Shown: piece by piece, positions 28,062 through 51,120 of the stretch
Layout of the letters: every line of letters starts with the position of its first letter
Position numbering within the stretch: position 1 is the first letter of the stretch
From: a virus
Lineage: Duplodnaviria > Caudoviricetes
DNA: 64,000 bases
Direction: 5' to 3' (one strand)
IMG/VR virus record: IMGVR_UViG_3300037010_001838
Made by a program: the position numbers and the translations under genes
The notes under the pieces: model-generated
What the model was told of the DNA's origin: nothing
What the model saw: the letters and a program-made list of their open reading frames with translations, nothing else
The model's database searches: none

Positions 28062-28144
28062 GCCCTGGTGACAAATGCAAATTGGTACAGCTACTGCGCT
28101 AAGAACGCAGGTTTTTACGGGTTCGACTCCCGTCTGGGGCACCA
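28062..28144 (+). tRNA. tRNA-Leu(AAG)
   Basis: CTGCG-CTAAGAA-CGCAG; GCCCTGG/CTGGGGC-A-CCA. Confidence 0.85.
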
Positions 28145-28152
28145 AAAATATT

Positions 28153-28248
28153 ACCGTATCATTCCAGTAGGTGCTGGTAAGAATCCATAAGAGTTGTACT
28201 TGGAGTCCAGGTGCAACACAGGCAGAGCGTGACTGCAATACGGTTCCA
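28153..28248 (+). ncRNA. tRNA-like RNA ending in TCCA
   Basis: Terminal 7-bp stem ACCGTAT/ATACGGT plus TCCA; internal hairpins; no canonical T-loop. Confidence 0.45.
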
Positions 28249-28257
28249 AAATTTAAT

Positions 28258-28330
28258 GCGGGTTGTCAAGTGGTGTACGTTTGGCCTTCCAAGCCGAAAG
28301 AGGTGAGTTCGAATCTCATAGCCCGCTCCA
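28258..28330 (+). tRNA. tRNA-Gly(TCC)
   Basis: TTGGC-CTTCCAA-GCCGA; GCGGGTT/AGCCCGC-T-CCA. Confidence 0.9.
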
Positions 28331-28339
28331 AAATATTAT

Positions 28340-28441
28340 GGCGCAGATAGGTGTAGTTGAAACAGCACTGTGGGAGATTCCTCGAGGCGTAGCTCCCATT
28401 CCTCTGGATAAGTGGGTTAAATTCCCATCCTGTGGCCACCA
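28340..28441 (+). tRNA. tRNA-like gene with enlarged 16-nt anticodon loop, isotype unclear
   Basis: GGGAG/CTCCC stem around ATTCCTCGAGGCGTAG; GTGGG-TTAAATT-CCCAT; ACCA. Confidence 0.5.
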
Positions 28442-28509
28442 AACACGTTTGTCTCATTAATCTATATGACAAGGTGAGCGAGGGTTTGAATCCCTCTTTG
28501 GATACTAGT

Positions 28510-28594
28510 CGGCAAGTGGCTTAGGTAAATTGGTACAGCCCCTGGATTTAAGTTCCAGTGCTCTTGGTTGGGTTCGAATCCCCCTTGCCGACCA
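28510..28594 (+). tRNA. tRNA-Leu(TAA), short variable arm
   Basis: CTGGA-TTTAAGT-TCCAG; CGGCAAG/CTTGCCG-A-CCA. Confidence 0.75.
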
Positions 28595-28600
28595 AATATT

Positions 28601-28691
28601 GGAGAGTAGCGTCCATGGTGGACAAACTGCCTAGAAAGCAGTCGCCGGCATCTAAGTAGAGCCGCTGGTTCGATTCCTGTACTCTCCGCCA
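28601..28691 (+). tRNA. tRNA-Ser(AGA)
   Basis: ACTGC-CTAGAAA-GCAGT; long variable arm; G73; CCA. Confidence 0.85.
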
Positions 28692-28696
28692 CATTT

Positions 28697-28780
28697 CCGC
28701 AGGTGGCTTAGGTAAATTGGTACAGCCCCTATCTTCAAACGGTAGTGCTTTTGTGGGTTCGAATCCCTCCCTGCGGACCA
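28697..28780 (+). tRNA. tRNA-Leu(CAA), short variable arm
   Basis: CTATC-TTCAAAC-GGTAG; paralogue of 28510; CCA. Confidence 0.75.
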
Positions 28781-28792
28781 GACAGTTAAATT

Positions 28793-28876
28793 GCCCCCGG
28801 TGACAAATGCAAATTGGTACAGCTACTGCGCTAAGAACACAGGTTTTTACGGGTTTGACTCCCGTCTGGGGCACCA
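28793..28876 (+). tRNA. tRNA-Leu(AAG), degenerate duplicate
   Basis: Near copy of 28062-28144 with anticodon-stem mismatch and T-loop TTTGACT. Confidence 0.6.
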
Positions 28877-28881
28877 AAATT

Positions 28882-28970
28882 ACGAGTGTGGTGTAATTAG
28901 GTAGATGTAACAGGCTTAAACCCTGCCTGCCTGCCGAAAGGTCGTACCGGTTCGAATCCGGTCACTCGGA
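28882..28970 (+). tRNA. tRNA-Leu(TAA), class II, no encoded CCA
   Basis: CAGG-CTTAAAC-CCTG; long variable arm; ACCGG-TTCGAAT-CCGGT. Confidence 0.8.
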
Positions 28971-29029
28971 CTTTTGTTGATATTTTCGTCATTTTAATAT
29001 ATCATTTAATATATGATGAGAGACTAAAA

Positions 29030-29533
29030 ATGAACAGACATTATCAGAATTATCTTTTTAAGAAGTATCCTGCTCTATATAAAGAACACACTCTTCCGAT
29101 GAGTGAAACTTGTATGTGTTGGGGGGTTACTTGTGGAGATGGTTGGTTTAATCTTATTAATCAATTGTCTGAATTTTTGTGCAGCGATTGGATCTATGAG
29201 AAATACACATACGATCGTATGGTGACTAACCTTGGTCAACTTTTGTATCCAGGTAGTCCTGAAAGTGATTTTAACCCTATTATCACAACTGAGTTGATTG
29301 CCGCAGTCAAAGTAAGGATGGATGATGCAGAACTTTCGATTCCTGTTGCTCGGCAAGTGAAAGAAAAATTTGGAACTCTTCGGTTTTATGTTTCTAACGC
29401 AACTGAAGAACAATATTCAGCAATTCAGTTTGCTGAATATCAAAGTAAAATGATTTGTGAAGTGTGTGGTGCACGAGGAACTGTGGGTGGCCGGGGTTGG
29501 ATTTCAACTCGGTGTATTAAACACAGAAAGTGA
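29030..29533 (+). CDS. conserved phage hypothetical protein
   Basis: CGDGWFNLI...QVKEKFGTLRFY...CEVCG motif. Confidence 0.8.
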   Translation: MNRHYQNYLFKKYPALYKEHTLPMSETCMCWGVTCGDGWFNLINQLSEFLCSDWIYEKYTYDRMVTNLGQLLYPGSPESDFNPIITTELIAAVKVRMDDAELSIPVARQVKEKFGTLRFYVSNATEEQYSAIQFAEYQSKMICEVCGARGTVGGRGWISTRCIKHRK

Positions 29534-29538
29534 TATAT

Positions 29539-29629
29539 GGAAGGTAGTGTCTATGGCAGACAAACTGTTTTGAAAGCAGTCGCCGGCATCTAAGTAGAGC
29601 CGCTGGTTCGATTCCTGTACCTTCCGCCA
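29539..29629 (+). tRNA. tRNA-Ser(TGA)
   Basis: ACTGT-TTTGAAA-GCAGT; variable and T arms identical to 28601; G73 CCA. Confidence 0.85.
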
Positions 29630-29648
29630 GTTTTAAAGTTTTAAATTT

Positions 29649-29733
29649 GTCTCGGTGCAGGGAATTGGTAGACTGAATTGTTTCAAAAACAATTGACCGA
29701 AAGGTGGGAGTTCGAGTCTCCCTCGAGACACCA
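29649..29733 (+). tRNA. tRNA-Leu(CAA)
   Basis: ATTGT-TTCAAAA-ACAAT; long variable arm; CCA. Confidence 0.9.
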
Positions 29734-29741
29734 AACAAATT

Positions 29742-29834
29742 GGTCCTGTAGTTTAAAGAAAACAAGATGATTTATAAACATCCAAGGTCCTAGATGAGGG
29801 CAAGTAGTGGGAGCGTTACCCACCAGGACTACCA
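29742..29834 (+). tRNA. atypical tRNA-Ile(TAT)
   Basis: GGTCCTG/CAGGACT-A-CCA; GATG-A-TTTATAA-A-CATC; long variable region; T-loop AGCGTTA. Confidence 0.55.
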
Positions 29835-29837
29835 AAT

Positions 29838-29960
29838 TGTTGTGTGAGGGGGATTGGTATACCCCGGCGGTGGAATCATAGTGGGGAGCTCTGTGAAAAC
29901 AGACTAAAATAGTAACCCTTCCAGTAGCTTGTGTAGGTTCGAGTCCTACCACAACAACCA
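29838..29960 (+). tRNA. tRNA-like gene with structured insertion in anticodon arm
   Basis: TGTTGTG/CACAACA-A-CCA; D-arm; GTAGG-TTCGAGT-CCTAC; about 43 nt between TGGAA/TTCCA. Confidence 0.55.
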
Positions 29961-30176
29961 ATTGTTGACTTTTACTCTCCATTAGTGTAAAGTATCTTTA
30001 CTTTAAATGTTTGTTGATAAGGTGAACTGTGTCGGAACGTGATTATAAAGAACTTCGAAAAATCGCAAACCAGTTTGTTGATTACAACCTAATACAGTGT
30101 TGCGCAGAACTTGCAGCTATAAGTAACAGGACAGGGGGGAAAACCCCGTTCTTTTGGACTTAAATTAAAAACAGGA

Positions 30177-30452
30177 TTGAATATGACTCATACTGATTTA
30201 TTATATGCTCCACCAGGAACGAAAGTAAGGTTTCTTGATGAACACGGTCTTGATTATAATCGCATTCAAGCTAGAAAACTTGGATTGGTTGAAGGTGGAG
30301 AGTATACACTATCATATATGATTATAAGTGATTATCATACAAATATCTTTCTTGAAGAGTTCCCCGGAAAATCCTTTAATTCTGTAATGTTTAGTTGTAA
30401 ATATGAACATCCGAACAGTCTTTGGATAAATACTACAACAATTAAAGGATAA
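30177..30452 (+). CDS. hypothetical protein
   Basis: 91 aa with AGGA SD. Confidence 0.6.
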   Translation: MNMTHTDLLYAPPGTKVRFLDEHGLDYNRIQARKLGLVEGGEYTLSYMIISDYHTNIFLEEFPGKSFNSVMFSCKYEHPNSLWINTTTIKG

Positions 30453-30456
30453 TATT

Positions 30457-30708
30457 ATGACAACAACATCAAGACTCATGGAACTCGCTGGAATTGGTCA
30501 ATCGGAAATGCTTATTGAAGCAGTCGAGATTCCTGATAACGTTTCTTTGGACCAAATTGCATCAATGATGGATGCTGCAAAACGTGGTTTGGGAATTGTT
30601 AACAAGATGAAAAACCCCGTAGATAAGAAGAAACACGCCTCTGCTGTTCTATCTAATATGAATAAAATCCGTTCTGCACTTCAACGTGTAATAAGTTCGA
30701 TGGAGTAA
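30457..30708 (+). CDS. hypothetical protein, probable internal virion protein
   Basis: ATAAATA upstream; RLMELAGI N-terminus shared with 19595. Confidence 0.65.
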   Translation: MTTTSRLMELAGIGQSEMLIEAVEIPDNVSLDQIASMMDAAKRGLGIVNKMKNPVDKKKHASAVLSNMNKIRSALQRVISSME

Positions 30709-30709
30709 T

Positions 30710-31068
30710 ATGTTGTTATAGGAACTATATCAAGAAGATTCGAGCATTATTCGCTCTGAAGGAAATGATTATAGTGTTAATAAATTATTATGAATAATTA
30801 AAAACGTCAAGCCCCAAGAGTTTGAAGTATCTGATTTAATTTGGATTCCCCATACACTAAAACAGAAAAACAGCGAACAATCAAGGCAGATACTTCACAT
30901 CCTATAATTGTTATCAAATCGAGAGGTAAATTGGTAGTATTAGATGGGGTTCATAGACTAGTTAAATCAGTTCAACAACACAAAAAACAAATATTGGGCA
31001 AATTAATTACACAGGACCAACTCAATAAAGCCAAAAATATAAATACCCTTTTTGGAGTTATTGTATGA
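30710..31068 (+). pseudogene. disrupted ParB-like (VLDGVHRL) gene
   Basis: ATG 30710 frame contains TAG (30719) and TGA, then a frameshift near 30850 into the ORF with VVLDGVHRLVK. Confidence 0.6.
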
Positions 31069-31694
31069 AATTTCTATTTGGGCTTCTTTTAGTTTCTTCT
31101 TTCGCGTTTGCAGACTGTCCTCAACTATACCCAGATCATAAACCTTTTAACATTCCTAATACTACTGAACTTTGTAATAGTTTTTACGTATCGGATTATG
31201 ACACTATCAACCACAAGGTAATTGCTGTATCAGAATTATTGAAACACAATTTCCCAGTAGGGTCAGTAAAACGAACAAACAATTTTCATTCTGATGATAG
31301 GGTTGGTTCTGTTCCTAACAACCGCCAATATTTAAAAACACATTATGACAAAGGTCATATGGCACCTGCTGATGATGCATCTTCTTTAGAAGAAATGAAA
31401 GAAACTTTTTTGTTGACAAATATGACTCCACAATCTCCAACTTTAAATAGAGTTGAGTGGAAGTTACTAGAAGAAAAAGTAAGAGGTATTTTTGATTCTT
31501 CAAAAACAGATGTTTATGTTGTAACGATAGCAGTATACGAAAACAAACAAACAATTAATGGTCTTCCAATTCCGTCTGGATATTGGAAAATTGTGTATGC
31601 TGATAACTCTCAATACTTTTTTTATGCTGATAATAATGATGACGCAGTTGTTGTTCAACGTGGTTCAGTTGCATTACCCTCTTTATTTAAATAG
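31065..31694 (+). CDS. DNA/RNA non-specific endonuclease (Serratia Nuc family) with signal peptide
   Basis: YDKGHMAPA, NMTPQSPTLNR..W. Confidence 0.9.
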   Translation: MKFLFGLLLVSSFAFADCPQLYPDHKPFNIPNTTELCNSFYVSDYDTINHKVIAVSELLKHNFPVGSVKRTNNFHSDDRVGSVPNNRQYLKTHYDKGHMAPADDASSLEEMKETFLLTNMTPQSPTLNRVEWKLLEEKVRGIFDSSKTDVYVVTIAVYENKQTINGLPIPSGYWKIVYADNSQYFFYADNNDDAVVVQRGSVALPSLFK

Positions 31695-32162
31695 TTATTG
31701 ACGTTTATTCACTTTTAAGTTAATCTGACCACACAGTGTTCAGGCAGGTGTATGAACGTATATCGGTCTGCTGTGGACAATTTGAAGACTCCAACTAATG
31801 GGGAATAATCATGAAATTTAATTTAACATTTAAAGACCCCCGATGGTGTATCTGAAAGTATTGCTAACGCCGTTAAACAGAGTATGGTAGACGTAACAGG
31901 TCTTTCATCACAAGAAATTGAATCAATACGTGATGACCGAAGTGAAGAACTTTATGATATCATATCACCGTGGGTTAGATATGGAGAATATTTAATTATT
32001 ATCGACACTGATGCTGAAACGGCTGAAGTGAAAATTAATAATAAATGTTGACACCAACTGATGTTTAATAGATAATGGGTTATCTTTTGTTCCATGTGTT
32101 CGCAAAACACAAAGGTTCGCCAAACCACGAGCAAGAATTCTTAACTTTAAAGGTAAAAATAA

Positions 32163-32612
32163 ATGTCTCTTATTGAACAAATTAAAACTGACCAAATTGT
32201 TGCACGTAAATCTAAATCCGACGCTGCAAGTTTGTTGACCACACTTTACAGTGAAGCGTTGATGGTTGGAAAAAATGCTACACCACCTAGAGACCCAACC
32301 GATGCAGAAGTTATAAACACAATTAAAAAATTCCTTAAAGGTGTCAACGAAAATATATCTTACGCTGGTGACCGACAGGATGCTGACTGGCGTGACGCGT
32401 TAGAAATTGAACGAGAAATTTTGGAATATTACCTTCCGAAACAACTTTCCGTTGAAGAATTGACTTCTATTATTACTAAATTTATTTTAAATGGTGGGAT
32501 TGCAACCCCAAAAGGAACAGGTCTTATTATGCAATATCTAAAAAATACATACGAGGGCATGTATGACGGGAAAGTTGCATCTGATATTATTAAAGGATTA
32601 CTAAAACAATGA
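32163..32612 (+). CDS. GatB/YqeY domain protein
   Basis: MSLIEQIKTDQIVARK...LLTTL...YLPKQLS.EEL...G.IM...Y.G..DGK. Confidence 0.85.
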   Translation: MSLIEQIKTDQIVARKSKSDAASLLTTLYSEALMVGKNATPPRDPTDAEVINTIKKFLKGVNENISYAGDRQDADWRDALEIEREILEYYLPKQLSVEELTSIITKFILNGGIATPKGTGLIMQYLKNTYEGMYDGKVASDIIKGLLKQ

Positions 32613-32878
32613 TAACTCAATATTACAAAATAAAAGCAACTCAAGAGAATATTGAGCATGGATATCCTGGATGTTTCGTCCTAGACGATTCTGATGATAA
32701 AATCGTCGGTTTCGTTGATTTTGTTTCTGATTGTGAAATGGCTATTATGTTATTTGAACCAATGGATATAAACGTCCCAGGAATGGTAAATATTAGTTCA
32801 ACATGTGACTGGGAAAAACGTCTTGTTGATATATTAGAGAACGATGTCGATATGGCACTCCAGTGGCTTTCACACTGA
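32609..32878 (+). CDS. hypothetical protein
   Basis: ATGA overlap. Confidence 0.6.
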   Translation: MITQYYKIKATQENIEHGYPGCFVLDDSDDKIVGFVDFVSDCEMAIMLFEPMDINVPGMVNISSTCDWEKRLVDILENDVDMALQWLSH

Positions 32879-32884
32879 ATTCTG

Positions 32885-33217
32885 ATGAATGAAGAAAAAA
32901 CTTTTGACTATTGGATGAATCTATTCAAGGATAATCCAACAGAGTTCAACAAACAACGTAATGAAGCAATTCATGATGCTGTTATGGGGTGGCAAGAAGA
33001 CCCCGATAAACAGAAACAAATGGAAGCTAAAATATTCAACATGAACCTCCGATTAGACCGTATTCATGATTCAACAGAACGGTTCAATAAGGTTCAATCT
33101 ATATTTTGGACCCAATTCTATGCGTTTCAGTATGAGATGCAAGTGTTTAGTGGGGAAATTCGTTCCAATGTAGAACAGTCAAGATTAAGGATTGTTGTTG
33201 ACAACACAAAACAGTAA
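32885..33217 (+). CDS. DUF3135-like protein
   Basis: FDYWMNLFKDNPTEF...R...I pattern. Confidence 0.5.
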   Translation: MNEEKTFDYWMNLFKDNPTEFNKQRNEAIHDAVMGWQEDPDKQKQMEAKIFNMNLRLDRIHDSTERFNKVQSIFWTQFYAFQYEMQVFSGEIRSNVEQSRLRIVVDNTKQ

Positions 33218-33226
33218 AGGAAAATC

Positions 33227-33691: not shown

Positions 33692-33815
33692 CAATTTCAA
33701 TGTATAACTGGCCGCCTTGGTTATATTGGATTTGGGGACAAACGATTCGAACGATTCTTTTACCCTTGGTGTTGATTGTTAGATTGTTTGAGTGGGTTTA
33801 TAAATACACTAACAT

Positions 33816-33892
33816 GCGGGAGTAGCTCAGTTGGTTAGAGCGCAACTTTGCCAAAGTTGAGGTCGAGAGTTCAAGTCTCTTTTCCCGCTCCA
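33816..33892 (+). tRNA. tRNA-Gly(GCC)
   Basis: Canonical cloverleaf, CAACT-TTGCCAA-AGTTG, CCA; TATAAATA at 33799 upstream. Confidence 0.95.
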
Positions 33893-33939
33893 AAAATTCT
33901 TTCTTAATGGAGATAAACATTAAGTGGTGGGTTGACTTT

Positions 33940-35017: not shown

Positions 35018-35018
35018 T

Positions 35019-35364: not shown

Positions 35365-35436
35365 GCTCAATTGGCTTAATGGTAAAGCAGGTGCTTCTAA
35401 AACACTTGACCGTCGGTTCGATTCCGACATTGGGCA
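35365..35436 (+). tRNA. amber suppressor tRNA (anticodon CTA)
   Basis: GCTCAAT/ATTGGGC-A; canonical D and T arms; GGTGC-TTCTAAA-ACACT puts CTA at 35397-35399. Confidence 0.75.
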
Positions 35437-35443
35437 CCGAGAA

Positions 35444-35603: not shown

Positions 35604-35612
35604 CGTATTAAT

Positions 35613-36179: not shown

Positions 36180-37056
36180 CAGAACGTTTCATCAGAAACA
36201 ATTTAAAAGATAAAGAATTACGCGCTTGTGCAAAGTAACCAACAGCGATGTTGTGAAAGCGGTAGGTCCTACAACTACCGCGCCCTGTAAGGGGTACAAA
36301 CAAGCAAGCCTGACCTACTCCGAAAGGAGCTGATTATCGCCAACGGTAGTCATATGAGGGAAGTTAGGGGTGTGGAAAGAACGAATGTTTACAAGCCTGC
36401 TCTGCAGGGAACTTGGGCATTTGGAGAGTAACGGGTTGTGCCGACCTCACGCCTACACAAACTAGCCATCTCAAAAGGTAAAGGGTAGTACAGTGGTCCG
36501 AACCCGCAAGTAAGGGCTGTTGTGCAAGTTGAGGGGGTTTTGGTACCTGTAATAGGGTGTCACGATTCCTGAAAACTGGTTGAGTAGTCGGCAGATGAAA
36601 AACATGAGGAGTGTGGTATTTTTATACTCAAAAGGTATGAAATCCACTGGAAACGCACTTCTTGGTAGGTTTAACAATGTTAGGGTTAACAGCCCATATA
36701 AATTTGGATTATATTACATAAAACGCAAAGACGTTTCCAGTGTAAAGTGAAAATGGCTTAATCCTTCAGCCGCAAGGTAATGAAGGCGTCCAAAACTCGC
36801 AAGGTCGAGGATGTTGAAAGAAAGTCGCACGCAGAGAGTTAGCGCTCTTGTACAGCTCGCAAGGTTGGCGGTAGACAGATAATCGAGTAGCTTTACATGT
36901 TGGTGGAAAAGCAACCACTTAAAAAATGCAGTCATGTTGATAGACATAGTTGTGCGAAAGCTGATTATGTGGATAAGAGAAGAACTCTAGCTGTAGCAGG
37001 TGATGAGATAATGTCTCGAAGGTATCAATAGTATAGGTTTAATCTCAACCTTATAC
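36180..37056 (+). ncRNA. large structured RNA, GOLLD-like
   Basis: About 880 nt non-coding, many GNRA-capped hairpins (CTCC-GAAA-GGAG, GCC-GCAA-GGT, CTC-GCAA, TGC-GAAA-GC); terminal hairpin with TAATCTC loop; next to phage tRNAs. Confidence 0.65.
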
Positions 37057-38129: not shown

Positions 38130-39632
38130 GTGAGCAAAGAATTTGTGGATGCCCTTTCTATTACAACCAATGTAGCGCACACGGAAAATGGTGCTGTTGC
38201 ATTTGATACAACCAAATCAGCTATGTTGGATTTGTTTGCACAAGGGGGTGCACTCCGCAATCGTGCTGATGATGAAATTCTTCGTTTGTTTTCAAAAGCT
38301 TATGCAGAAAATGCATTGTTTGCCACTCGTGCTATGTTCTATTTCAGGGACGCTCGTGGTGGTCAAGGTGAACGCGATACATTTAGAAAGCAATTAAAGT
38401 GGTTGATTAACGTTAACCCTGACGCTGTCCGTAAAAACATTAAACTTATTCCATACTTTGGACGTTGGGATGATTTGTATGTGTTATTTGATACAGAACT
38501 TGAAACAGATGCAATTACACTAATCTTTACACAGATTGCCGAAGACACGGCATCTGAACATCCCTCGTTGCTTGCAAAATGGTTGAAAAGTGAAAACGCT
38601 TCTTCAAAAGAAACGAAACGACTTGCAACAAAAACTCGTATAGGTCTTAAATTAAGTTCCAAAGCATATCGCTTGATGTTGAGCACTCTTCGTAAGAAAA
38701 TTAACATCGTTGAACGGTTGGTGTCTGCCAATCAGTGGGATAGTATTGAATACAGTGCCGTTCCTTCTCAAGCTAACTTGTTATATGGGAAAGCTTTCTT
38801 CACGCATGACGCTGAACGCCGTAAGAAATTCTTGGATTCTTTAAAGACTGGCGAAAAGAAAATCAATGCGAGTGTTCTTTTTCCATATGAAATCGTCCAT
38901 AAAGCACTTACGGTGGGCAGGAACACACCACAACACGAACGCCAACTCATAGATGCGTTGTGGGACGCTCTTCCAAACTATATTGGAGATAAACAAGAAA
39001 ATGCTCTTGCTGTAGTTGATGTGTCTGGTTCTATGGCTGGTCTTCCATTGGAAGTTGCTATTTCGGTTGGAATGTATTTGGCTGAACGTAACACTTGTGA
39101 AGCTTATCATAACAAGTTCATTACTTTTAGCTCTACACCTCAACTACTTAAAATTCAGGGAGCTGACCTTGTTGAAAAAATAGCTAATATGAATAGTTCT
39201 GCATGGGAAATGAATACAGATATTCAAGCTGTGTTCCGTTTGATTCTTACTGTTGCCAAACAAAACAAGTTAGCACAATCTGAATTACCACAGAAGTTGT
39301 ATATCATTTCTGATATGGAATTTGATGCCGCTATAAGCAACGCTAGATATTCTTATAAGAATCAATGTCGGGGTGTGGTTGACGAAAAATTTTTCCAAAC
39401 AATTTCTAAAGAATTTAGTGAGTGTGGATATACAATGCCCAATTTGGTGTTTTGGAATGTTGATGCTCGGAACCAACAGTTTCCAATGAGTATGGATGAG
39501 CGTGGTTTTCAAATGGTTAGTGGATGTAGTCCGTCTATCTTTAAGCACACAATAGGTGGAGAATTTATGTCTGCTTATGATTTGATGCTTGATGTTATTA
39601 ACAGTGAACGTTATCAACTCGTTACAATTTAA
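38130..39632 (+). CDS. DUF2828 / TROVE-like vWA domain protein (Ro60-related)
   Basis: TENGA, RDARGGQGER, GRWDDL, AKWLKSE, MIDAS VVDVSGSM, FITFS, ISDMEFD, LVFWNV. Confidence 0.85.
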   Translation: MSKEFVDALSITTNVAHTENGAVAFDTTKSAMLDLFAQGGALRNRADDEILRLFSKAYAENALFATRAMFYFRDARGGQGERDTFRKQLKWLINVNPDAVRKNIKLIPYFGRWDDLYVLFDTELETDAITLIFTQIAEDTASEHPSLLAKWLKSENASSKETKRLATKTRIGLKLSSKAYRLMLSTLRKKINIVERLVSANQWDSIEYSAVPSQANLLYGKAFFTHDAERRKKFLDSLKTGEKKINASVLFPYEIVHKALTVGRNTPQHERQLIDALWDALPNYIGDKQENALAVVDVSGSMAGLPLEVAISVGMYLAERNTCEAYHNKFITFSSTPQLLKIQGADLVEKIANMNSSAWEMNTDIQAVFRLILTVAKQNKLAQSELPQKLYIISDMEFDAAISNARYSYKNQCRGVVDEKFFQTISKEFSECGYTMPNLVFWNVDARNQQFPMSMDERGFQMVSGCSPSIFKHTIGGEFMSAYDLMLDVINSERYQLVTI

Positions 39633-46300: not shown

Positions 46301-46520
46301 TCTTCCAAGTCTAACTCTTGATTGGTCTTCCGATATAGGTTTTGCAAGTTCAGAAGGTTTGTTATGGAATTTCTCAAATCGTTGTTTGGATGTTCGTAAT
46401 AATCAAGTAGCAGTTACAGGATACACGTACCAAAATGGAGCAGGAACAAATAATAGCCAAATGATGACTGTGAAAATACCGGTTGCCAACGTATTATTTT
46501 CTGTGGGGAATTGTAAATAA
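43386..46520 (+). CDS. large virion tail/fibre structural protein
   Basis: 1044 aa, Ser/Thr/Gly-rich; GDTMTG.L.L..NP...LQAATKQYVD fibre motif; C-terminal propeller-like repeats. Confidence 0.8.
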   Translation: MQLSFRQGLVQYQSNFLSWSTVRSDSISLSTTNKPVTVTFSQQSSEYLLVEPLGQNATVRWTGLPVSNSSDFWIFWDIDNLTALVTYGFTTVAPVFGPIDPFQTTIPFPTIPATGQHWFDTSSMTMKVWSGSSWTPKIRVFAAKIENGSIIVPYPPGTQVGVASPIKSGRILRDGTGTPIKKANKTFVTSEDRFFIENSDVRTAELETSIVVGIARESIPSYSAVKLEDFNDYYLANYEDTTAGFIGMAIDSATYGESLFVTIQGMITNPAWDWQTPNAKIWIDSNGQLTDVNPGIATPTRGFQQPIARVISPTSIIFGQGYFNDAGTVTNTVVTQKASGSIIGITELSLDPLNLNTPIAVGDNDPRMSDARTPLAHTHQSTDVFYQGTPLDTTLNLIMSDLSGKVSKSGDTMTGFLTLNANPVANLQAATKQYVDSAANQTITLSGDISGSGTSGITTTLSNSGVTAGTYNNSALTSTPFTVDAKGRVTATGTPITITPDWASVLWKPTTLAGYGITDGQPLNVDLTAISNLATGTTGVLTKTGPGTWTLGAASSGASNTIFQEDTSLTITDSGTNGTMSYVVDGRLVMTTDTRNIRFFSGAPDSWVSVVESGAFTLDNTGGSTVKIDSLGNIITLGSVNQSSLTSVLVIKVDSTGNTIWQRLISDNNGTSGATADASAIDSQDNIIMAVNVNHYGTSDTQPILKLDSDGNILWQVGVTQNIDINSPPGTYQPQITDIVVDSSNDVYAGGFLIIQNPDNPGLRTNAGLIVKLSGIDGSVMWQQLIQDSTSSRGDCHLTGITYNPSLNQIYVCGNLLTKDSFSNSSNNGFVAAYDSAGNRQWISLSDVSGDTTHINDQAYDAHGNLVNYKTFSGITLGVGSTLHNSGGTSIYVCGQAFTPRLTNFCICEYIATQGAGITATIGELVTSRTYDNSYGNHSQLYEIVATPTELIAVGNPQTNTFGSDWSILKISLPSLTLDWSSDIGFASSEGLLWNFSNRCLDVRNNQVAVTGYTYQNGAGTNNSQMMTVKIPVANVLFSVGNCK

Positions 46521-46581
46521 TAGCCAAACGATGACTGTAAAAATACCGGTTGCCAACGTATTATTTTCTGTGGGGAATTGT
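46448..46581 (+). repeat. 67-bp tandem duplication at end of tail gene
   Basis: 46448-46514 and 46515-46581, two mismatches. Confidence 0.9.
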
Positions 46582-46622
46582 GCGGTTGGTGGCGGTGGAT
46601 AACAATAAAAGGAGAATGACAA

Positions 46623-47471
46623 GTGCCAATATCAGTACCACCAACAAGTCCAATAGTAGGATCTTTTAATTTTTGCTCTTTTCACATTTTACCAGATGAT
46701 TTTATTGAAACAAGTGTAGATACACTACTTTCCAATAACATAAATTCGTTAATATCGGGGGAAGAGTGGTTATTAACAGCTGTAGCGTCAGGACCTACAA
46801 CCTTTGTAACTCCTTCAGCAGTGTCATATTCAATTGATGCTTCTCAATATAGCACATTAGAGATTGACACTTTACCTTTCTCTTCAACGGTTTATACATT
46901 AACCGTTGATACAATTAACTCTTCAACTATTGTTAATGGAACTTTAACTTCTGATAATATAACATCTACTAATATAACCAATTCAGGAATTATAAGCACT
47001 AATACATTGAATGTTACTACTGGTATTAATTTTGGAACAAATACAACAAGTCCTCCAAACACAGTTATAATATCTGATTCAGGTGGACACCAACTTTGGG
47101 CAAATCCAAGTAGTTTGATAACGTCTCAATCTAATATATGGACAGCAGGCCAACGTGGACAATATGTTTATTTGGTTTCTTCTGGAGGAATTATCAATCT
47201 AGATATGGATTCAGGAAACAACTTCTCCGTTGTTATGACAGAAAATTCAACACTCAACTCTCCTGTTAATTCTGGTGCTGGTCAGAGTGGAATAATCGTA
47301 ATTCAAAATGGAACAACTCCGAGCACTTTAACCTTTAATTCATACTGGAAGTTTGCTGGTGGTGTTGCTCCAACGTTAACACCAACAGCAAACGCAGTTG
47401 ATGTGTTGAGTTATATGGTAAGTCCATCAGGAAATTTTGCAATTTGTCAAATTCTGAATGATATAAAATGA
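46623..47471 (+). CDS. tail fibre-related protein
   Basis: C-terminal WTAGQRG...GNNF...GQSG.I.I......LTFNSYWKFAGGVAPTLT....VDVLSY domain. Confidence 0.75.
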   Translation: MPISVPPTSPIVGSFNFCSFHILPDDFIETSVDTLLSNNINSLISGEEWLLTAVASGPTTFVTPSAVSYSIDASQYSTLEIDTLPFSSTVYTLTVDTINSSTIVNGTLTSDNITSTNITNSGIISTNTLNVTTGINFGTNTTSPPNTVIISDSGGHQLWANPSSLITSQSNIWTAGQRGQYVYLVSSGGIINLDMDSGNNFSVVMTENSTLNSPVNSGAGQSGIIVIQNGTTPSTLTFNSYWKFAGGVAPTLTPTANAVDVLSYMVSPSGNFAICQILNDIK

Positions 47472-47706
47472 TACCTGGAATCTTTGTACCACTTTGGGGG
47501 AAAATCAGGAACATGTGATAAACTTTGGAACAAAGTTTTCTATTGTTTATGGAAATGGAAAATTTGTAACTGTTGGTTATGGAGCAACAAAAGTTTCAGC
47601 TGTAAGTCCTGATGGAATAAATTGGACGCAATCTGGGTTACCTGTTGCAAGTACATATAGTTCTATTGCACACGGAAACGGACATAAATATCCTTGTCCT
47701 TTATGA
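47468..47706 (+). pseudogene. truncated tail beta-propeller gene remnant
   Basis: SIVYGNGKFVTVG...SPDGINWT repeat in a short broken frame. Confidence 0.45.
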
Positions 47707-47812
47707 AAGATAGAACTCAATATGTTAATTATGAAACTCATACGAGCACATTTGACGTTTATTATTCCTCCATACTGTCAAACATGTTCTTATTTAAAAG
47801 GTAAAAAATAAA

Positions 47813-48448
47813 ATGAATAAAATAGACGTTCACATATGTAGGTTTGGTGATTATGATAAAAAACTATATGAACAGTGTCTAAAATCTATAGAACCTGCTT
47901 CACATTTAATAAACATACATTTCGTTGATGATATATCACCTCTCAAAAAAGCCCGATACGTAGGCTATGGTACAGGTTCGGCTGAATACATTTGTCACGT
48001 AGACCACGACGATTATGTGTTTCCAGAAGCATTTCAAGCGTGTTTGGAAGAAATAGAAAAAGATAAAACGCTTTCAGGTGTATATACTAACTCTTTTATA
48101 GTCAATCCGTATAAAAACATAAGAAGACAATTTTACAGTGAAACAACAGAGTGGACAAGAGAGTATCACATTCAAACACCAATTCCTGTTCATCCATTAT
48201 GCATAATGAGACGTTCTGTGTTCGATAAAGTGAAAGACGAATATTTAGAACATGGGTTAGAATTTCGTACAGACCAATATCTTTTTACGTTGATGGCTCG
48301 AGAAGGAGATTTTAAATTTCTTGGAAAAAAATATGGATACGCATGGAGAGATTTTAAAACCGGACACCATGTAAAAAACAACTCCCCAAAAGATAAACAA
48401 CATTTGATAGAATTCAAGAGACAAGTTCTTGGACCTTCCAAAAATTAA
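47813..48448 (+). CDS. glycosyltransferase family 2
   Basis: YICHVDHDDY DxD motif, GT-A pattern. Confidence 0.8.
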   Translation: MNKIDVHICRFGDYDKKLYEQCLKSIEPASHLINIHFVDDISPLKKARYVGYGTGSAEYICHVDHDDYVFPEAFQACLEEIEKDKTLSGVYTNSFIVNPYKNIRRQFYSETTEWTREYHIQTPIPVHPLCIMRRSVFDKVKDEYLEHGLEFRTDQYLFTLMAREGDFKFLGKKYGYAWRDFKTGHHVKNNSPKDKQHLIEFKRQVLGPSKN

Positions 48449-48507
48449 TCATTGACAGATAACTATAAAACGAGTACAATATTAAAAATTTTATAGACTG
48501 AATTGAT

Positions 48508-48885
48508 GTGTCTGATATACTTGAACAAAATTCGAATACCGAAAACGTCGAAGATATAGATTTAAACATTCAACGTTTTATACAAGCATTTAACAAAGCA
48601 CGAACCGTTATTTTAACGGCTATAGTATATCTGTATCCAGAAAACTGGTCTGCAAGGTGTTCATTAGCAGACACCAAATTTGATAACACAATTTGGGCTT
48701 TTGATATTTTAAATGAAAACGGTGAAGTTCACGCGCAATACCTTATTGATGATATTGTGGCTGTATTAAATACGGCGCGTGAAGAAGCAACAGAATTACT
48801 CGAAAAGAACCCACACTATAAAGATACAAAATATCTTATTGGTGTGGGAACTGAAAGAGCGTTACAACAATTTAATGTTAACTGA
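48508..48885 (+). CDS. hypothetical protein
   Basis: 125-aa ORF. Confidence 0.6.
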   Translation: MSDILEQNSNTENVEDIDLNIQRFIQAFNKARTVILTAIVYLYPENWSARCSLADTKFDNTIWAFDILNENGEVHAQYLIDDIVAVLNTAREEATELLEKNPHYKDTKYLIGVGTERALQQFNVN

Positions 48886-49157
48886 ACACCAAGAATGAAG
48901 ACCCTGGACCGGCGTCGGTTGTTACTTGATTTTCATAATGCAATACCCTAAATACAGATGTGGTAATTGACCCTACGGTATACAGCAAAAACGACCGATG
49001 GTGTTCCAATAACATAATATCTGGATACGGATGTATATGTTGGAATAGTACCAAATGTTTGGAGTGGGGTTGTGTTTATTGCTGGCATGATGTATTTTTC
49101 TTAAAACTTAATAATAAATATAAAGGTATAAACGACAAACTTAAAAGGAACAATCAA

Positions 49158-49709
49158 ATGAAATTAAAAGACCTAATTCCTCTAACAGAAAATACTACAG
49201 ACTGGGTTGTGTATAAAGTTACCAACTCTAACAACCATAGCACTTATTATGGGTATGGAAAGGGTAATTTAAGACAGACGTTCTTAGCTGGTGCTAATCG
49301 GAACGCTGCCGATAGAACAGAAGCAAAATATGTGAACGCAGCAGGTGGAATTGATAATTGCAAATTTAAAGAGATGGAAATTTTTGATAGCGAATATGAA
49401 GCTTTTATGGAACGAAACGATCTTCGTTCAAAAGATCCAGATTCAATCACAGGGCCATCACGTTTACCATCAGGAATGTTCGAACGTGCCCTAAAAGAAA
49501 ATCCAAAACGAGTTAGTGGATGGAAATTAGGAGCTAGTATTAATGACGAGACTGCAAGAGGAGCCATGAAGAATTTTCCTGAAGAATGTGTGTATGATAC
49601 TAAGAGACTGAGAGATCTTGTTGGAACAGATAAAAAATTAGAAGCTCAAGTTAAAAAAGATTTGGACAGTATGACTTATCCTGCATTTATAAAGAAGTAC
49701 AACCTGTAA
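49158..49709 (+). CDS. GIY-YIG-like protein with MKLKDL N-terminus
   Basis: AAAGGA SD; VVYKVTN...YYGY...E.FM.E pattern. Confidence 0.55.
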   Translation: MKLKDLIPLTENTTDWVVYKVTNSNNHSTYYGYGKGNLRQTFLAGANRNAADRTEAKYVNAAGGIDNCKFKEMEIFDSEYEAFMERNDLRSKDPDSITGPSRLPSGMFERALKENPKRVSGWKLGASINDETARGAMKNFPEECVYDTKRLRDLVGTDKKLEAQVKKDLDSMTYPAFIKKYNL

Positions 49710-49789
49710 CTTATATTATTATAGTGAACTGGACATCAACGGATGTATCAAGTTGACTCTTTGATTAAAAAGATATATAATATTTTATT

Positions 49790-50030
49790 GATTTGTGGTG
49801 CCCGAATCCCTTTATGGTAAAGACACCACGAAAATAGTCCAGTGGACCTCAGAAACGGTGTATGTGTAGTGGTAGGCGCTAAACGTTGATACATACACTA
49901 GCCGTAAGGACCTCCTGAAGTAACAGGACACCTTGGATATTGCGGGTTAAGAACCTGTTGCCAAGGATGCGATAGTGTGAAGCCGACGAAGACGGGCTCA
50001 AACCTGGCAAGGAAGTGGAAAGCTTCCAAA
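49790..50030 (+). ncRNA. candidate structured small RNA of about 240 nt
   Basis: TTGACT-17-TATAAT (49753-49781); stems GTGGTG/CACCAC, GTGTATGT/ACATACAC, CCTTGG/CCAAGG, GGAAG/CTTCC. Confidence 0.6.
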
Positions 50031-50044
50031 TTTAAACTTTTTTG

Positions 50045-50073
50045 TTGACTTTTATAAATAAGTCATATATACT
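50045..50073 (+). promoter_or_regulatory. tRNA-operon promoter 2
   Basis: Identical to 27290-27318 and 63401-63429. Confidence 0.9.
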
Positions 50074-50127
50074 TGTATCAACAGTTGAGCAAAGTGCTCA
50101 ATAAATTTAATTAATGGAGATTTGCAA

Positions 50128-50226
50128 ATGATTTTTACGACTTTCTTTACAGCGTTTACAACCCCTGAGGCATGGCATGCCCCAGAGATGGCTGTGTGCG
50201 CTCTTGAGGAAGGTTGGAAAAACTAA
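50128..50226 (+). CDS. leader (attenuator) peptide 2, MIFTTFFTAFTTPEAWHAPEMAVCALEEGWKN
   Basis: GGAG SD; 32 codons; codons 3-22 are only Phe/Thr/Ala/Pro/Glu/Trp/His/Met. Confidence 0.8.
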   Translation: MIFTTFFTAFTTPEAWHAPEMAVCALEEGWKN

Positions 50227-50244
50227 AAAGTTTCCAGAAATTCT

Positions 50245-50276
50245 AAAAAGGGCGCTCCGAAAAAGCGCCCTTTTTT
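50245..50276 (+). terminator. attenuator terminator 2
   Basis: AAAAAGGGCGCT/AGCGCCCTTTTT; 5' arm also pairs with GCGCTCTT (50198-50205). Confidence 0.9.
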
Positions 50277-50307
50277 ATTGTTTGTTGATTTTGTAGTAAA
50301 TGTTTTA

Positions 50308-50327
50308 AACTGTTCATTAACAATTTG
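50308..50327 (+). promoter_or_regulatory. boxA-like site 2
   Basis: AACTGTTCATTAACAATTTG. Confidence 0.65.
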
Positions 50328-50338
50328 GATTCGTTTGT

Positions 50339-50412
50339 CAGGGTGTGGGAAAGTTTGGTAATCCGCGAGTTTTGGAAACTCGAGACCACTGGTTCAAATC
50401 CAGTCATCCTGA
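50339..50412 (+). tRNA. tRNA-Pro(TGG)
   Basis: CAGGGTG/CATCCTG-A; CGAGT-TTTGGAA-ACTCG. Confidence 0.9.
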
Positions 50413-50440
50413 CAAACGAATTCTAAACAAAAAATATTAT

Positions 50441-50516
50441 CTCTGTGTGGTGCAATCTGGTAGCATAGCTGGTCCGGAGCCAGGCGATCAAGGTTCAAAT
50501 CCTTGCATGGAGACCA
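50441..50516 (+). tRNA. tRNA-Pro(CGG)
   Basis: CTGG-TCCGGAG-CCAG (C33 atypical); CCA. Confidence 0.7.
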
Positions 50517-50523
50517 AACGAAT

Positions 50524-50602
50524 GGGGTTAGGGACTGCTTGGCGTGGTCGCCGCACTTGCAATACGGAAAACAGCTCGGTTCAAATCCGAGTAGCTCCAC
50601 CA
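50524..50602 (+). tRNA. tRNA-Ala(TGC)
   Basis: GGGGTTA/TAGCTCC with G3-U70; CTTGCAA loop; CCA. Confidence 0.9.
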
Positions 50603-50605
50603 AAT

Positions 50606-50653
50606 GGGTGATTCGGGTGGCTAAGGCGGGTTCGATTCCCGTATGCTCCACCA
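50606..50653 (+). tRNA. truncated tRNA (T-arm plus CCA only)
   Basis: GCGGG-TTCGATT-CCCGT-ATGCTCC-ACCA in 48 nt. Confidence 0.45.
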
Positions 50654-50685
50654 AAAGAACTTTTAAATGTTGAAGTTCTTTTAAT

Positions 50686-50744
50686 GGGGGCATGATGGTT
50701 GCTGCCGACGGGCAAGACGAGTTCGATTCTCGTATCGTCCACCA
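50686..50744 (+). tRNA. truncated tRNA lacking D-arm
   Basis: ACGAG-TTCGATT-CTCGT-ATCGTCC-ACCA in 59 nt. Confidence 0.45.
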
Positions 50745-50793
50745 AAGTTTGTAAACCAAAGTTTGTAATTAGAGTGTGCTAAAACTAAAAAAT

Positions 50794-50880
50794 GCACGGG
50801 AAGTCAGATGGATTGGACACCACCCTTTCAAGGTGGCAGGTGAAAACCGTTTGCGGGTTCGAGTCCCGTTCCGTGCTCCA
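50794..50880 (+). tRNA. tRNA-Glu(TTC) with long variable arm
   Basis: CCACC-CTTTCAA-GGTGG; 16-nt variable region; CCA. Confidence 0.85.
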
Positions 50881-50900
50881 ATTTTCACAAGTAAAACAAC

Positions 50901-50972
50901 TTTCAGTATAGTGTAATGGTTAGCACGACCCCGTTGGTGGGTTAGAGTGTGGTTCGATTCCCACCTGAATAT
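50901..50972 (+). pseudogene. degenerate tRNA
   Basis: D-arm GTGT/GCAC and T-arm GTGG-TTCGATT-CCCAC present; anticodon loop and acceptor degraded. Confidence 0.4.
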
Positions 50973-51042
50973 GACAACTAGAGAGCAAGCTACTCTTTCA
51001 TTGGTGGTCTGATCAACTAAGATGACAAGTGAAACGATTAAC

Positions 51043-51120
51043 GTAACTGTAGCTCCAATCACGCAGAGCATTTGTCTAAAAAGCAAAGTGTTGCGGGTCC
51101 GAATCCTACTGGTTACACCA
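51043..51120 (+). tRNA. tRNA-Phe(AAA)
   Basis: GTAACTG/TGGTTAC-A-CCA; GCTC/GAGC; TTTGT-CTAAAAA-GCAAA. Confidence 0.75.

Follow-up and report, generated by a model that had tools for sequence, protein, structure and literature searches.

We propose that the five genes with anticodons rarely used by bacteria, found in the 64,000-nucleotide stretch of DNA analysed here (the window), fall into three groups, and on balance we favour this explanation as a whole. Ser(AGA) and the first copy of Leu(AAG) would be working phage tRNAs. The second copy of Leu(AAG) and Phe(AAA) would be duplicates with relaxed constraint, and the A of Phe(AAA) would be recent and strain-specific. The TAT element would belong to a conserved, structurally unusual phage family and would most likely serve AUA codons. 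The explanation is based on sequences and their folds, on conservation and covariation, and on gene content and codon usage; expression, charging, decoding and modification state we infer from these.

An earlier, sequence-only reading of this DNA had taken the five genes as one class of intact cloverleaves. We checked all coordinates and found the five anticodon loops where it had placed them. Ser(AGA) and Leu(AAG) copy 1 indeed looked intact, but Leu(AAG) copy 2 and Phe(AAA) had defects and the TAT element had odd loops. The single class was not upheld, since the anticodon of Phe(AAA) is a strain-specific change and Leu(AAG) copy 2 is degenerate. The rarity in bacteria of A-starting anticodons besides Arg(ACG) agrees with a 2026 preprint (Raval et al., doi 10.64898/2026.05.15.725136), in which such tRNAs are called absent from phages. 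The intact-looking Leu(AAG) and Ser(AGA) described here are of that very type.

The phage, its sister strain and codon use

The window is a part of a giant uncultured (jumbo) phage. The closest genome was a 178.8-kb IMG/VR contig with 98% identity and 1.83% divergence genome-wide, called the sister strain below. The completeness of this contig is 52%, and our statements on gene absence cover these 178.8 kb and the window. The major capsid protein encoded on the contig shared 64% identity with its counterpart in Xanthomonas phage XacN1. The contig carried 47 tRNA genes, and because Arg(ACG) was among them, host TadA is probably needed by the lineage in any case. Neither Leu(GAG) nor Ser(GGA) was present among the 47 tRNA genes of this 52% complete contig.

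The tRNA complement was a near-complete private set with many unusual members. C32 and A38 were frequent among the tRNAs of the phage, and the class I isotypes Cys, Glu and Ile-GAT of the lineage also bore extra variable-arm hairpins. The phage is AT-rich and favours U-ending codons (CTT, TCT). We observed that CTT made up 25% of Leu codons, TCT 29% of Ser codons, TTT 69% of Phe codons and ATA 27% of Ile codons.

All features described below lie on the + strand. Each tRNA block was preceded by a short leader ORF, and the cognate codons that had been reported in the leaders were indeed there. Leader 1 (27355..27450, 31 codons) includes CTC, TCT, TCC and ATA in codons 5-18, and its remaining codons also match tRNAs of block 1. 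By eye, its stop is followed on the 3' side by an apparent G+C-rich hairpin and then a T run. Leader 2 (50128..50226, 32 codons) has three TTT and one TTC, and a hairpin with a T run was seen by eye downstream, at about 50250-50280. Any argument from leader codons presupposes a putative attenuator model.

Ser(AGA) and Leu(AAG) copy 1

The tRNA-Ser(AGA) gene (28601..28691, anticodon 28633-28635) has a long variable arm, G73 and the loop CTAGAAA, and it was detected by ARAGORN at default settings. The anticodon stem is a perfect 5 bp, the acceptor 8 bp and the T stem 4 bp, with a compact D arm. Its Rfam score was higher with the tRNA-Sec model (36.5 bits) than with that for tRNA. The T stem contains a U.U mismatch and was absent from the predicted fold. 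The acceptor and D stems of Ser(AGA) differ by compensatory changes from those of its U34 paralogue, tRNA-Ser(TGA) (29539..29629; ARAGORN and Rfam). Relatives in L087, L302 and Aeromonas phage TS3 had the anticodon TGA. The L087 relative has an anticodon stem identical to that of Ser(AGA), and a separate Ser(GGA) gene is present there too. Because the nearest relatives carry TGA, Ser(AGA) would have arisen by a change of U34 to A.

The tRNA-Leu(AAG) copy 1 (28062..28144, anticodon 28101-28103) has the loop CTAAGAA with A37, A73-CCA, a 6-nt variable region and a 22-nt D region. Every pair was formed in its acceptor, anticodon and T stems (7/5/5), and no D stem could be defined. ARAGORN at default settings misses this gene, and the Rfam tRNA model gave only 20.9 bits. 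We found no variant of it among those listed for contigs of four metagenome runs. Further, we analysed its family (n = 25), in which all members have a Leu anticodon. Pairing was 97.6% and 16 of 17 pairs were altered on both sides; these values were reached by none of 500 shuffles. The closest members have the stem CTGCG/CGCAG in common with copy 1, but their loop is TTTAGAC, with the anticodon TAG. Because these nearest relatives carry TAG, Leu(AAG) would also have arisen by a change of U34 to A.

Leu(AAG) genes with full stems were present in about ten further IMG/VR lineages (L165, L107, L167, L169, L170, L172, L348, L365, L378), and their stems differ. They usually adjoin TAG, TAA and CAA genes, without GAG. 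In L348, well-formed Thr(AGT) and Val(AAC) accompany Leu(AAG). In our window, the CUN-box U34 partner tRNA-Leu(TAG) (27854..27930, short variable region, Rfam 48.1 bits) and two Ser(TGA) genes are retained in the same block as the A34 genes. From sequence we also recognised two Leu-type genes with short variable arms, one with the loop TTTAAGT and anticodon TAA (28510..28594), of the AAG-gene family, and one with the loop TTCAAAC and anticodon CAA (28697..28780). The latter was called Lys(ctt) by ARAGORN, which we rejected as a miscall.

No differences from the sister strain were observed in Leu(AAG) copy 1, Ser(AGA) or the TAT element, 268 nt altogether; at the genome-wide rate P is about 0.007, which is weak evidence, as the strains are very close. 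These results support the view that Ser(AGA) and Leu(AAG) copy 1 behave as selected genes. We propose that a U34 gene (Ser-TGA or Leu-TAG) was duplicated and U34 then changed to A. The A34 genes would thus occupy the slot usual for the G34 isoacceptors GGA and GAG, and would read the pyrimidine-ending UCU/UCC and CUU/CUC codons favoured in this AT-rich phage. The A34 could decode either unmodified, as works in E. coli, or after conversion to inosine by host TadA. A replacement of this kind is known in bacteria, where GNN was replaced by ANN in AT-rich lineages favouring U-ending codons, and every ANN tRNA tested in E. coli was functional (Raval et al. 2026).

Leu(AAG) copy 2 and Phe(AAA)

The second Leu(AAG) gene (28793..28876, anticodon 28833-28835) is a degenerate duplicate of copy 1. 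It has an extra C in the acceptor, the T loop TTTGACT and, in this strain only, a C.A mismatch in the anticodon stem. It differs from the sister strain at 2 positions, and its predicted fold was devoid of the anticodon hairpin.

The Phe(AAA) element (51043..51120, anticodon 51078-51080, Rfam 37.9 bits) is a diverging second Phe-type gene. It lacks G18G19, has the T loop TCCGAAT and a T-stem mismatch, and no cloverleaf was formed in its predicted minimum-energy fold. In the sister strain the anticodon reads GAA, and with 6 further differences the two strains differ at 7 of 78 positions. The adjoining main gene, tRNA-Phe(GAA) (51150..51225; ARAGORN and Rfam), differs by 1. Judging by these comparisons, AAA is a strain-specific change of G34 to A in a fast-diverging copy, and both Phe(AAA) and Leu(AAG) copy 2 look like decaying copies.

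The TAT element

The TAT element (29741..29834, anticodon 29773-29775) is a five-armed tRNA-like RNA with a long variable arm, G1.U72 and A73-CCA. Its anticodon loop is A-TTTATAA-A, closed by A.A, the D loop is AAAGA and the T loop AGCGTTA. It scored 29.3 bits in Rfam and was found by ARAGORN only at a lowered (95%) threshold, and the predicted minimum-energy fold was the five-arm cloverleaf. We rejected its identification as a normal tRNA-Ile on the grounds of the long variable arm and the unusual D, T and anticodon loops. A 9-nt loop is possible, and if it forms, TAT would not necessarily act as an anticodon.

Acinetobacter phages Acj61, P577, BS46 and Bestia kept the element, and compensated changes were observed at 8 of its 24 pairs. 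The variable-arm loop TAGATRA was conserved, and so were the D and T loops devoid of the usual elbow bases. In GenBank records of cultured Acinetobacter phages it is given as a pseudo-tRNA or is unannotated. A wider family has ordinary D and T loops and the variable-arm loop CTAGAT. The conservation and compensated pairs support the TAT element as a gene that behaves as selected.

Alternative explanations

Reading by inosine would refine the preferred explanation of the working A34 genes and does not replace it. The A34 of Leu(AAG) and Ser(AGA) would be deaminated by a broadened host TadA or by a phage enzyme encoded elsewhere, and if so, each tRNA would read U-, C- and A-ending codons. We regard this as possible but doubtful. 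It agrees with the probable reliance on host TadA for Arg(ACG), with the use of the C-ending CTC and TCC in leader 1 and with the modified Leu(AAG) reported from some bacteria (Raval et al. 2026). The Leu loop CTAAGAA is also one position apart from the Arg loop CTACGAA, but as C32 and A38 are common in tRNAs of this phage, the likeness of loops is weak evidence. The sequence-only reading had allowed for a phage TadA, but we found neither a TadA-like deaminase nor any gene with a cytidine/deoxycytidylate deaminase fold in the window or in the 178.8-kb sister contig (52% complete). Further, four-codon-box A34 tRNAs, Ser(AGA) included, were tolerated and unmodified in E. coli (Raval et al. 2026). 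It is unlikely, in turn, that the TAT element is something other than an Ile tRNA, namely a long-variable-arm tRNA charged otherwise or a tRNA-like RNA with a non-decoding job. A73 would suit leucine, as in nematode V-arm tRNAs with UAU, which accept leucine in vitro (PMC3333845), and the conserved TAGATRA loop, the A.A closure or 9-nt loop, the missing elbow bases and the pseudo or absent GenBank label point the same way. However, Cys, Glu and Ile-GAT here also have variable-arm hairpins, so the arm is no pointer to Leu or Ser identity, ATA is among the leader 1 codons that match block tRNAs, and it accounts for more than a quarter of Ile codons.

All five genes might instead be dead copies or passengers that remain from duplication and recombination in a rapidly changing tRNA array. 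Debris is present in the arrays (a 51-nt partial tRNA 3' piece at 50604-50653, missing from the sister strain), neighbouring genes have indels, several of the five score poorly in standard finders, and two of them are degenerate. Nevertheless, we consider this very unlikely for the set, given that the remaining three genes are unchanged despite the genome-wide divergence, covariation is strong in the Leu(AAG) and TAT families, Leu(AAG) recurs on different stems in other phage lineages, and the odd loops of the TAT element are kept in cultured Acinetobacter phages. The sequence-only reading had proposed that the A34 and TAT genes are substitutes uncut by host PrrC, colicins, VapC and PARIS-type enzymes. 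Phage tRNAs have been proposed to evade such enzymes via anticodon-loop changes (PMC10264068), and three independent changes to A34 in one genome, with many unusual tRNAs in a near-complete private set, would be in keeping with it. We find it highly improbable, since the ordinary U34 partners Leu-TAG and Ser-TGA (two genes) remain in the block, Ser(AGA) retains the GA dinucleotide at which Ser anticodons are cleaved according to PMC10264068, and codon use together with the absent G34 genes already accounts for the pattern. An A34 that fills an empty G34 slot in a phage with U-ending codons would be the simpler reading and fits these data.

Comparison with known systems

The bacterial tRNA-Leu(AAG) of Lactobacillus, Lactococcus, Streptococcus and Leuconostocaceae (Raval et al. 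2026 and papers cited there) is alike in that AAG replaces GAG in an AT-rich background with a preference for U-ending codons. In contrast to its long arm, the phage gene has the 6-nt variable region, and it differs also in the A37 of the loop CTAAGAA and in the 22-nt D region. The engineered E. coli serX-AGA and pheV-AAA (Raval et al. 2026) have the same anticodons AGA and AAA, whereas the phage genes occur naturally and their tRNA bodies are unusual. In E. coli, Ser(AGA) was tolerated, whereas Phe(AAA) imposed a cost and was partly converted to inosine, which parallels the intact Ser(AGA) and decaying Phe(AAA) of the phage.

Judged by capsid protein, the nearest cultured relative is Xanthomonas jumbo phage XacN1 (AP018399.1), which likewise has a large tRNA set, amber-suppressor tRNAs, class I variable-arm hairpins and an Ile(GAT) loop CCGATAA. 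However, A34 tRNAs and the TAT element are both missing from its tRNA region, whose G+C is 51%, versus 35-44% in the window. The same five-arm RNA as at 29741-29834 is present in Acinetobacter phages Acj61, P577, BS46, Bestia and YMC13/03/R2096 at 72-77% identity, with common motifs in the anticodon, D and variable-arm loops, G1.U72 and A73-CCA. There it is unannotated or labelled 'tRNA-pseudo (tRNA-OTHER)', the host and phage type differ, and a function was apparently never assigned. The nematode nev-tRNA (UAU; PMC3333845) also combines a long variable arm with the isoleucine anticodon UAU, but it is eukaryotic, nematode-specific and charged with leucine in vitro, and common descent of the two is unlikely. 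Phage tRNAs proposed to resist nucleases (PMC10264068) resemble these genes in having unusual anticodon loops within large tRNA sets. There, the proposed changes are at loop positions flanking an anticodon that stays the same, whereas in the genes described here the change is in the wobble base itself and affects decoding.

Leucine tRNA genes with the AAG anticodon

The anticodon loops of all five elements, Leu(AAG) copy 1 (28062-28144), Leu(AAG) copy 2 (28793-28876), Ser(AGA) (28601-28691), Phe(AAA) (51043-51120) and the TAT element (29741-29834), were found at the positions where the sequence-only reading had placed them. The loops are real, but the description of all five as intact cloverleaves held only in part: their quality is unequal, Leu(AAG) copy 2 and Phe(AAA) being degraded and the TAT element aberrant. 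The presence of cognate codons in the leaders was confirmed in ORFs 27355-27450 and 50128-50226. Codons 5-18 of the former read GGA TTA GGT TAT TGT CTA TCA CTC GGG TCT TTA TCC ATA TTG, while the latter contains three TTT codons and one TTC.

Leu(AAG) copy 1 displayed the features of a bacterial-type Leu(AAG): a 7-nt loop CTAAGAA, a 5-bp stem (CTGCG/CGCAG), A73-CCA and a leucine-type body. Its variable region was only 6 nt long (GTTTTT). Neither copy of Leu(AAG) was called by ARAGORN at default settings or scored above the Rfam cut-off. We scanned IMG/VR for the D-region motif GYAAATTGGTACAGCY, which is common to four genes of tRNA block 1, and obtained a family of approximately 83-nt genes present in many viral contigs. 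Twenty-three distinct sequences had an acceptor stem of 7 bp, anticodon and T stems of 5 bp each, a variable region of 6-7 nt and A73. Their anticodons were all leucine anticodons (TAG in 10, GAG, TAA and AAG in 3 each, CAG and CAA in 2 each). In an alignment of 25 sequences the three helices were 97.6% paired and 16 of 17 pairs had changed on both sides, values that shuffled sequences and slid registers came nowhere near. The D stem of the family could not be defined from this alignment; since its 3' strand is invariant, it offers no usable covariation. An ARAGORN reading of 28062 at low threshold, in which the AAG hairpin was taken for a variable arm, was rejected, as the family alignment makes this hairpin the anticodon arm.

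The Leu(AAG) of the window fits this short-variable-arm family by the GYAAATTGGTACAGCY motif, the 7/5/5-bp stems, A73 and the leucine anticodon, and it is the sole A34 sequence (anticodon starting with A) among the 25 aligned. Its nearest relatives, in viral contigs L097, L133 and L100, have the same anticodon stem with the loop TTTAGAC, that is TAG. Therefore we infer that AAG was derived from TAG. Family members from cultured Acinetobacter Saclayvirus phages are annotated as tRNA-Leu. Others lie without annotation between annotated tRNAs in complete GenBank genomes: a tRNA-Leu(TAG) in Rhizobium phage RHph_I1_18 (L161, 1501-1583) and tRNA-Leu genes with CAA and TAA in Synechococcus phage BUCT-ZZ01 (L163, 1501-1583 and ~1675-1750).

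We compared the window with a sister contig from IMG/VR (178,796 bp, approximately 98% identity, CheckV completeness 52%), which served as a proxy for its wider genome. Leu(AAG) copy 1 showed zero differences between the two strains. Copy 2 had an additional acceptor base and a T-loop C56 to T change. Other changes in copy 2 were specific to one strain, among them a stem mismatch in the window strain, and its anticodon hairpin was absent from the predicted fold.

The serine tRNA gene with the AGA anticodon

Ser(AGA) was called by ARAGORN at default settings and was unchanged in the sister strain. It combines an acceptor stem of 8 bp, a T stem of 4 bp and a compact D arm with the long variable arm, G73 discriminator and serine anticodon that define a bacterial tRNA-Ser. 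The 8-bp acceptor and 4-bp T stem appeared both in the ARAGORN drawing and in the predicted fold, and the eighth pair was kept in viral contigs L087 and L302 and in Aeromonas phage TS3. The gene shared 88% identity with the Ser(TGA) gene (29539-29629), with compensated pair differences in the acceptor and D stems. A pattern scan for further members of this serine family gave TGA genes only. In Aeromonas and Klebsiella phages, relatives carry the annotation tRNA-Ser(tga), the TS3 copy among them. Because the L087, L302 and TS3 relatives all carry TGA, and the L087 gene shares its anticodon stem with the window gene, AGA appears to be derived from TGA in a duplicate. L087 has a separate Ser(GGA) gene besides.

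In contigs from four DNA runs of microbial mat and sediment, which represent near-identical strains, none of the variants listed fell in the anticodons of Leu(AAG) copy 1 or Ser(AGA). Both are probably working A34 tRNAs, of a kind known from a few bacteria.

The Phe(AAA) gene and apparently decaying copies

In the sister strain the Phe element carries GAA and differs at six more positions, and different stems are broken in each strain. With seven differences in 78 nt it ranks among the 2.3% most divergent windows of equal size, and its divergence is approximately nine times the tRNA-gene average (1.0%). The matches obtained with Phe(AAA) as a query were all partial and fell in tRNA-Arg genes from other jumbo phages. 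Phe(AAA) is followed after 30 nt by the intact Phe(GAA) gene. Bacterial two-codon boxes have ANN tRNAs sporadically, and a GNN gene is always found alongside; in E. coli, Phe(AAA) is costly and partly deaminated (Raval et al. 2026, doi 10.64898/2026.05.15.725136). We read Phe(AAA) as a copy that is apparently under relaxed constraint. Our verdict is that Phe(AAA) and Leu(AAG) copy 2 are two decaying copies.

The TAT element and other unusual tRNA bodies

The predicted fold of the TAT element was a five-arm cloverleaf. BLAST relatives with 72-77% identity were found in Acinetobacter phages Acj61, P577, BS46, Bestia and YMC13/03/R2096, where the copies are labelled tRNA-pseudo or have no annotation; these cultured phages are tractable. 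In an alignment of five sequences all five helices held, being 99.2% paired with 8 of 24 pairs compensated. Apart from a single change at position 38 of the Acj61 copy, all five sequences kept the loop A-TTTATAA-A, the D loop AAAGA, the variable-arm loop TAGATRA, the T loop RGCRKTA, G1.U72 and A73-CCA. A wider set of TAT tRNAs with long variable arms, in approximately 20 other viral contigs, had ordinary D and T loops, the loop CTTATAA and the variable-arm loop CTAGAT. One of these canonical-loop genes (from L248) had no match when used as a query against cultured phages, and our literature search found no paper on the TAT element. We regard the element as a conserved tRNA-like RNA.

Extra variable-arm hairpins were observed in class I isotypes of both the window lineage and Xanthomonas jumbo phage XacN1, and several Leu genes lacked theirs. 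In the window these hairpins occurred in an 86-nt Cys tRNA (27662-27747) and an 87-nt Glu tRNA (50794-50880); in XacN1 (L306) they occurred in class I tRNAs for Lys (89 nt), Gly (86 nt), Thr (91 nt), Cys (89 nt) and Asn (89 nt). Since other class I isotypes carry such hairpins too, the variable arm alone is no argument for a leucine or serine identity of the TAT RNA. An Ile(GAT) gene with C at position 33 (loop CCGATAA) was present in the sister contig (75691-75775) and in XacN1 (17110-17185), the former additionally with a 16-nt variable arm. The main Phe(GAA) gene of the window (51150-51225) has an unusual T loop, ATCGTTA, resembling AGCGTTA of the TAT element; this type of T loop may be a feature of the lineage rather than a sign of decay.

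Gene content, codon use and decoding

ARAGORN at a slightly lowered threshold detected 47 tRNA genes in the sister contig. The CUN box was served by TAG and AAG genes and the UCN box by TGA, AGA and CGA genes; neither Leu(GAG) nor Ser(GGA) was among the 47 genes of this contig, which is 52% complete. Arg(ACG) and Ile(GAT) genes were present. U-ending codons were preferred: CTT made up 25% of leucine codons (CTC 8%), TCT 29% of serine codons and TTT 69% of phenylalanine codons. ATA accounted for 27% of isoleucine codons. With a G+C content of 35-44%, the window is AT-rich and prefers U-ending codons, as do bacteria with Leu(AAG).

ANN tRNAs replace GNN tRNAs in AT-rich bacterial lineages preferring U-ending codons, and in E. 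coli those of four-codon boxes, including Ser(AGA), are functional and unmodified (Raval et al. 2026, doi 10.64898/2026.05.15.725136). In our analysis the gene content and codon use of the phage appear to match both this bacterial pattern and the E. coli results. The sequence-only reading had proposed that the A34 and TAT tRNAs might escape host nucleases or depend on a phage or broadened TadA. Bacterial Leu(AAG) is reported to have A34 converted to inosine by TadA in some species. Profile searches with PF14437 and PF00383 in the 52%-complete sister contig and a scan of window ORFs for the HAE...PCxxC motif gave no enzyme of the cytidine/deoxycytidylate deaminase fold. Resemblance between the Leu loop and the phage Arg(ACG) loop, considered as a sign of TadA action, was set aside because C32 and A38 are common in the tRNAs of this phage. 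Nuclease escape, an idea that draws on PMC10264068, would require the loop to differ from that of the host tRNA where a host anticodon nuclease recognises or cuts it. The A34 tRNAs for Leu and Ser could in principle form, with the five-armed UAU RNA, a private decoding set, deliberately non-host-like, that would resist host defence directed at tRNAs. A codon-matched leader would sense these RNAs, and the UAU RNA would be charged with some amino acid in place of isoleucine, changing how AUA is read in infection. We consider this scheme very improbable.

A34 tRNA genes in other phages

Scanning IMG/VR for the Leu D loop combined with the AAG loop, we found well-formed Leu(AAG) genes in approximately 10 other viral lineages. 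These were called by ARAGORN at default settings, had short or long variable arms and differed in their stems in a compensated manner. Their usual neighbours were TAG, TAA and CAA genes, usually without GAG. Before filtering, the pattern gave 71 AAG and 20 GAG matches, numbers that were discarded, as the extra AAG matches were mostly coding sequence; after a stem check approximately 10 AAG and 5 GAG lineages remained, with GAG undercounted because the pattern requires A37. Contig L348 (IMGVR_UViG_3300010365_001407, 30% G+C) contained three well-formed A34 tRNAs at 4833-4907, 5872-5946 and 7559-7646, namely Thr(AGT), Val(AAC) and Leu(AAG), and Val(AAC) was also present in L378. The Leu(AAG) of L107 had no match among cultured phages.

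The near-universal absence of A34 tRNAs for four-codon boxes has been treated as a paradox, and they were said to be absent from bacteriophages (Raval et al. 2026, doi 10.64898/2026.05.15.725136). Contrary to that statement, phages do keep Leu(AAG), in the window and in approximately 10 other lineages. In some, Ser(AGA), Thr(AGT) or Val(AAC) is retained as well; typically the genome is AT-rich and the A34 gene apparently stands in for its G34 counterpart. Such genes are natural test cases for decoding by plain A34 or by inosine. Two recurrent phage RNA families, the short-variable-arm tRNA-Leu and the five-armed UAU tRNA-like RNA, have been overlooked by standard tRNA finders and GenBank records.

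Genomic surroundings

ARAGORN at default settings called 25 tRNA genes on the + strand of the window, and the Rfam search gave 21 tRNAs and a GOLLD RNA at 36606-37051. The latter scored 198.8 bits and lies approximately 1 kb upstream of a Ro60/TROVE-like gene (38130-39632), both between tRNA blocks. The large ORFs matched phage families, namely a helicase, the Ro60/TROVE-like RNA-binding protein and an IMPDH-like protein. An intein that contains a homing endonuclease region of the LAGLIDADG type splits the gene of the last (IMP dehydrogenase/GMP reductase domain, 22540-24798, - strand). The major capsid protein of the sister contig was 64% identical to its XacN1 counterpart. Microbial-mat and sediment metagenomes contained DNA near-identical to the window, and megablast of 8 kb of the window against cultured phages gave no match.

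A well-formed amber-suppressor tRNA (anticodon CTA, 63.9 bits) was located at 35365-35438. TAG was the stop codon in just 9 of 82 crude window ORF calls, and two suppressor tRNAs are annotated in XacN1. A 51-nt 3' piece of a tRNA (T arm, acceptor strand and CCA, 50604-50653) is inserted after tRNA-Ala and was not present in the sister strain, and a 14-nt duplication lies near 50745. The tRNA arrays of the window recombine, leaving debris. Stretches at 28150-28250, 28335-28445, 28447-28505 and 29840-29960 have a T arm, acceptor strand and CCA at their end. Excess length or irregularity puts them beyond the tRNA finders, and they may be interrupted tRNA genes.

Comparison with known tRNAs

Allo-tRNAs, a term associated with Mukai et al. 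2017, have an 8/4 or 9/3 cloverleaf. Ser(AGA) shares the 8/4 form, but allo-tRNAs have an anticodon mismatched to a serine body, whereas AGA and TGA of the window both fit serine identity; therefore we did not file it as an allo-tRNA. The canonical class II bacterial tRNA-Leu has a long variable arm, while Leu(AAG) of the window is without one. Bacterial tRNA-Ile(UAU) of the Mycoplasma mobile type belongs to class I; its cloverleaf has standard D and T loops, and its anticodon loop measures 7 nt. The TAT element is unlike it in its long variable arm, its A.A closure or 9-nt loop, its D loop AAAGA and its T loop AGCGTTA. Nematode V-arm tRNAs resemble the element in combining a long variable arm with a UAU anticodon, a likeness of form only; the nematode tRNAs accept leucine in vitro (PMC3333845). 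Finally, the tRNA region of XacN1, at 51% G+C, contains no A34 gene.
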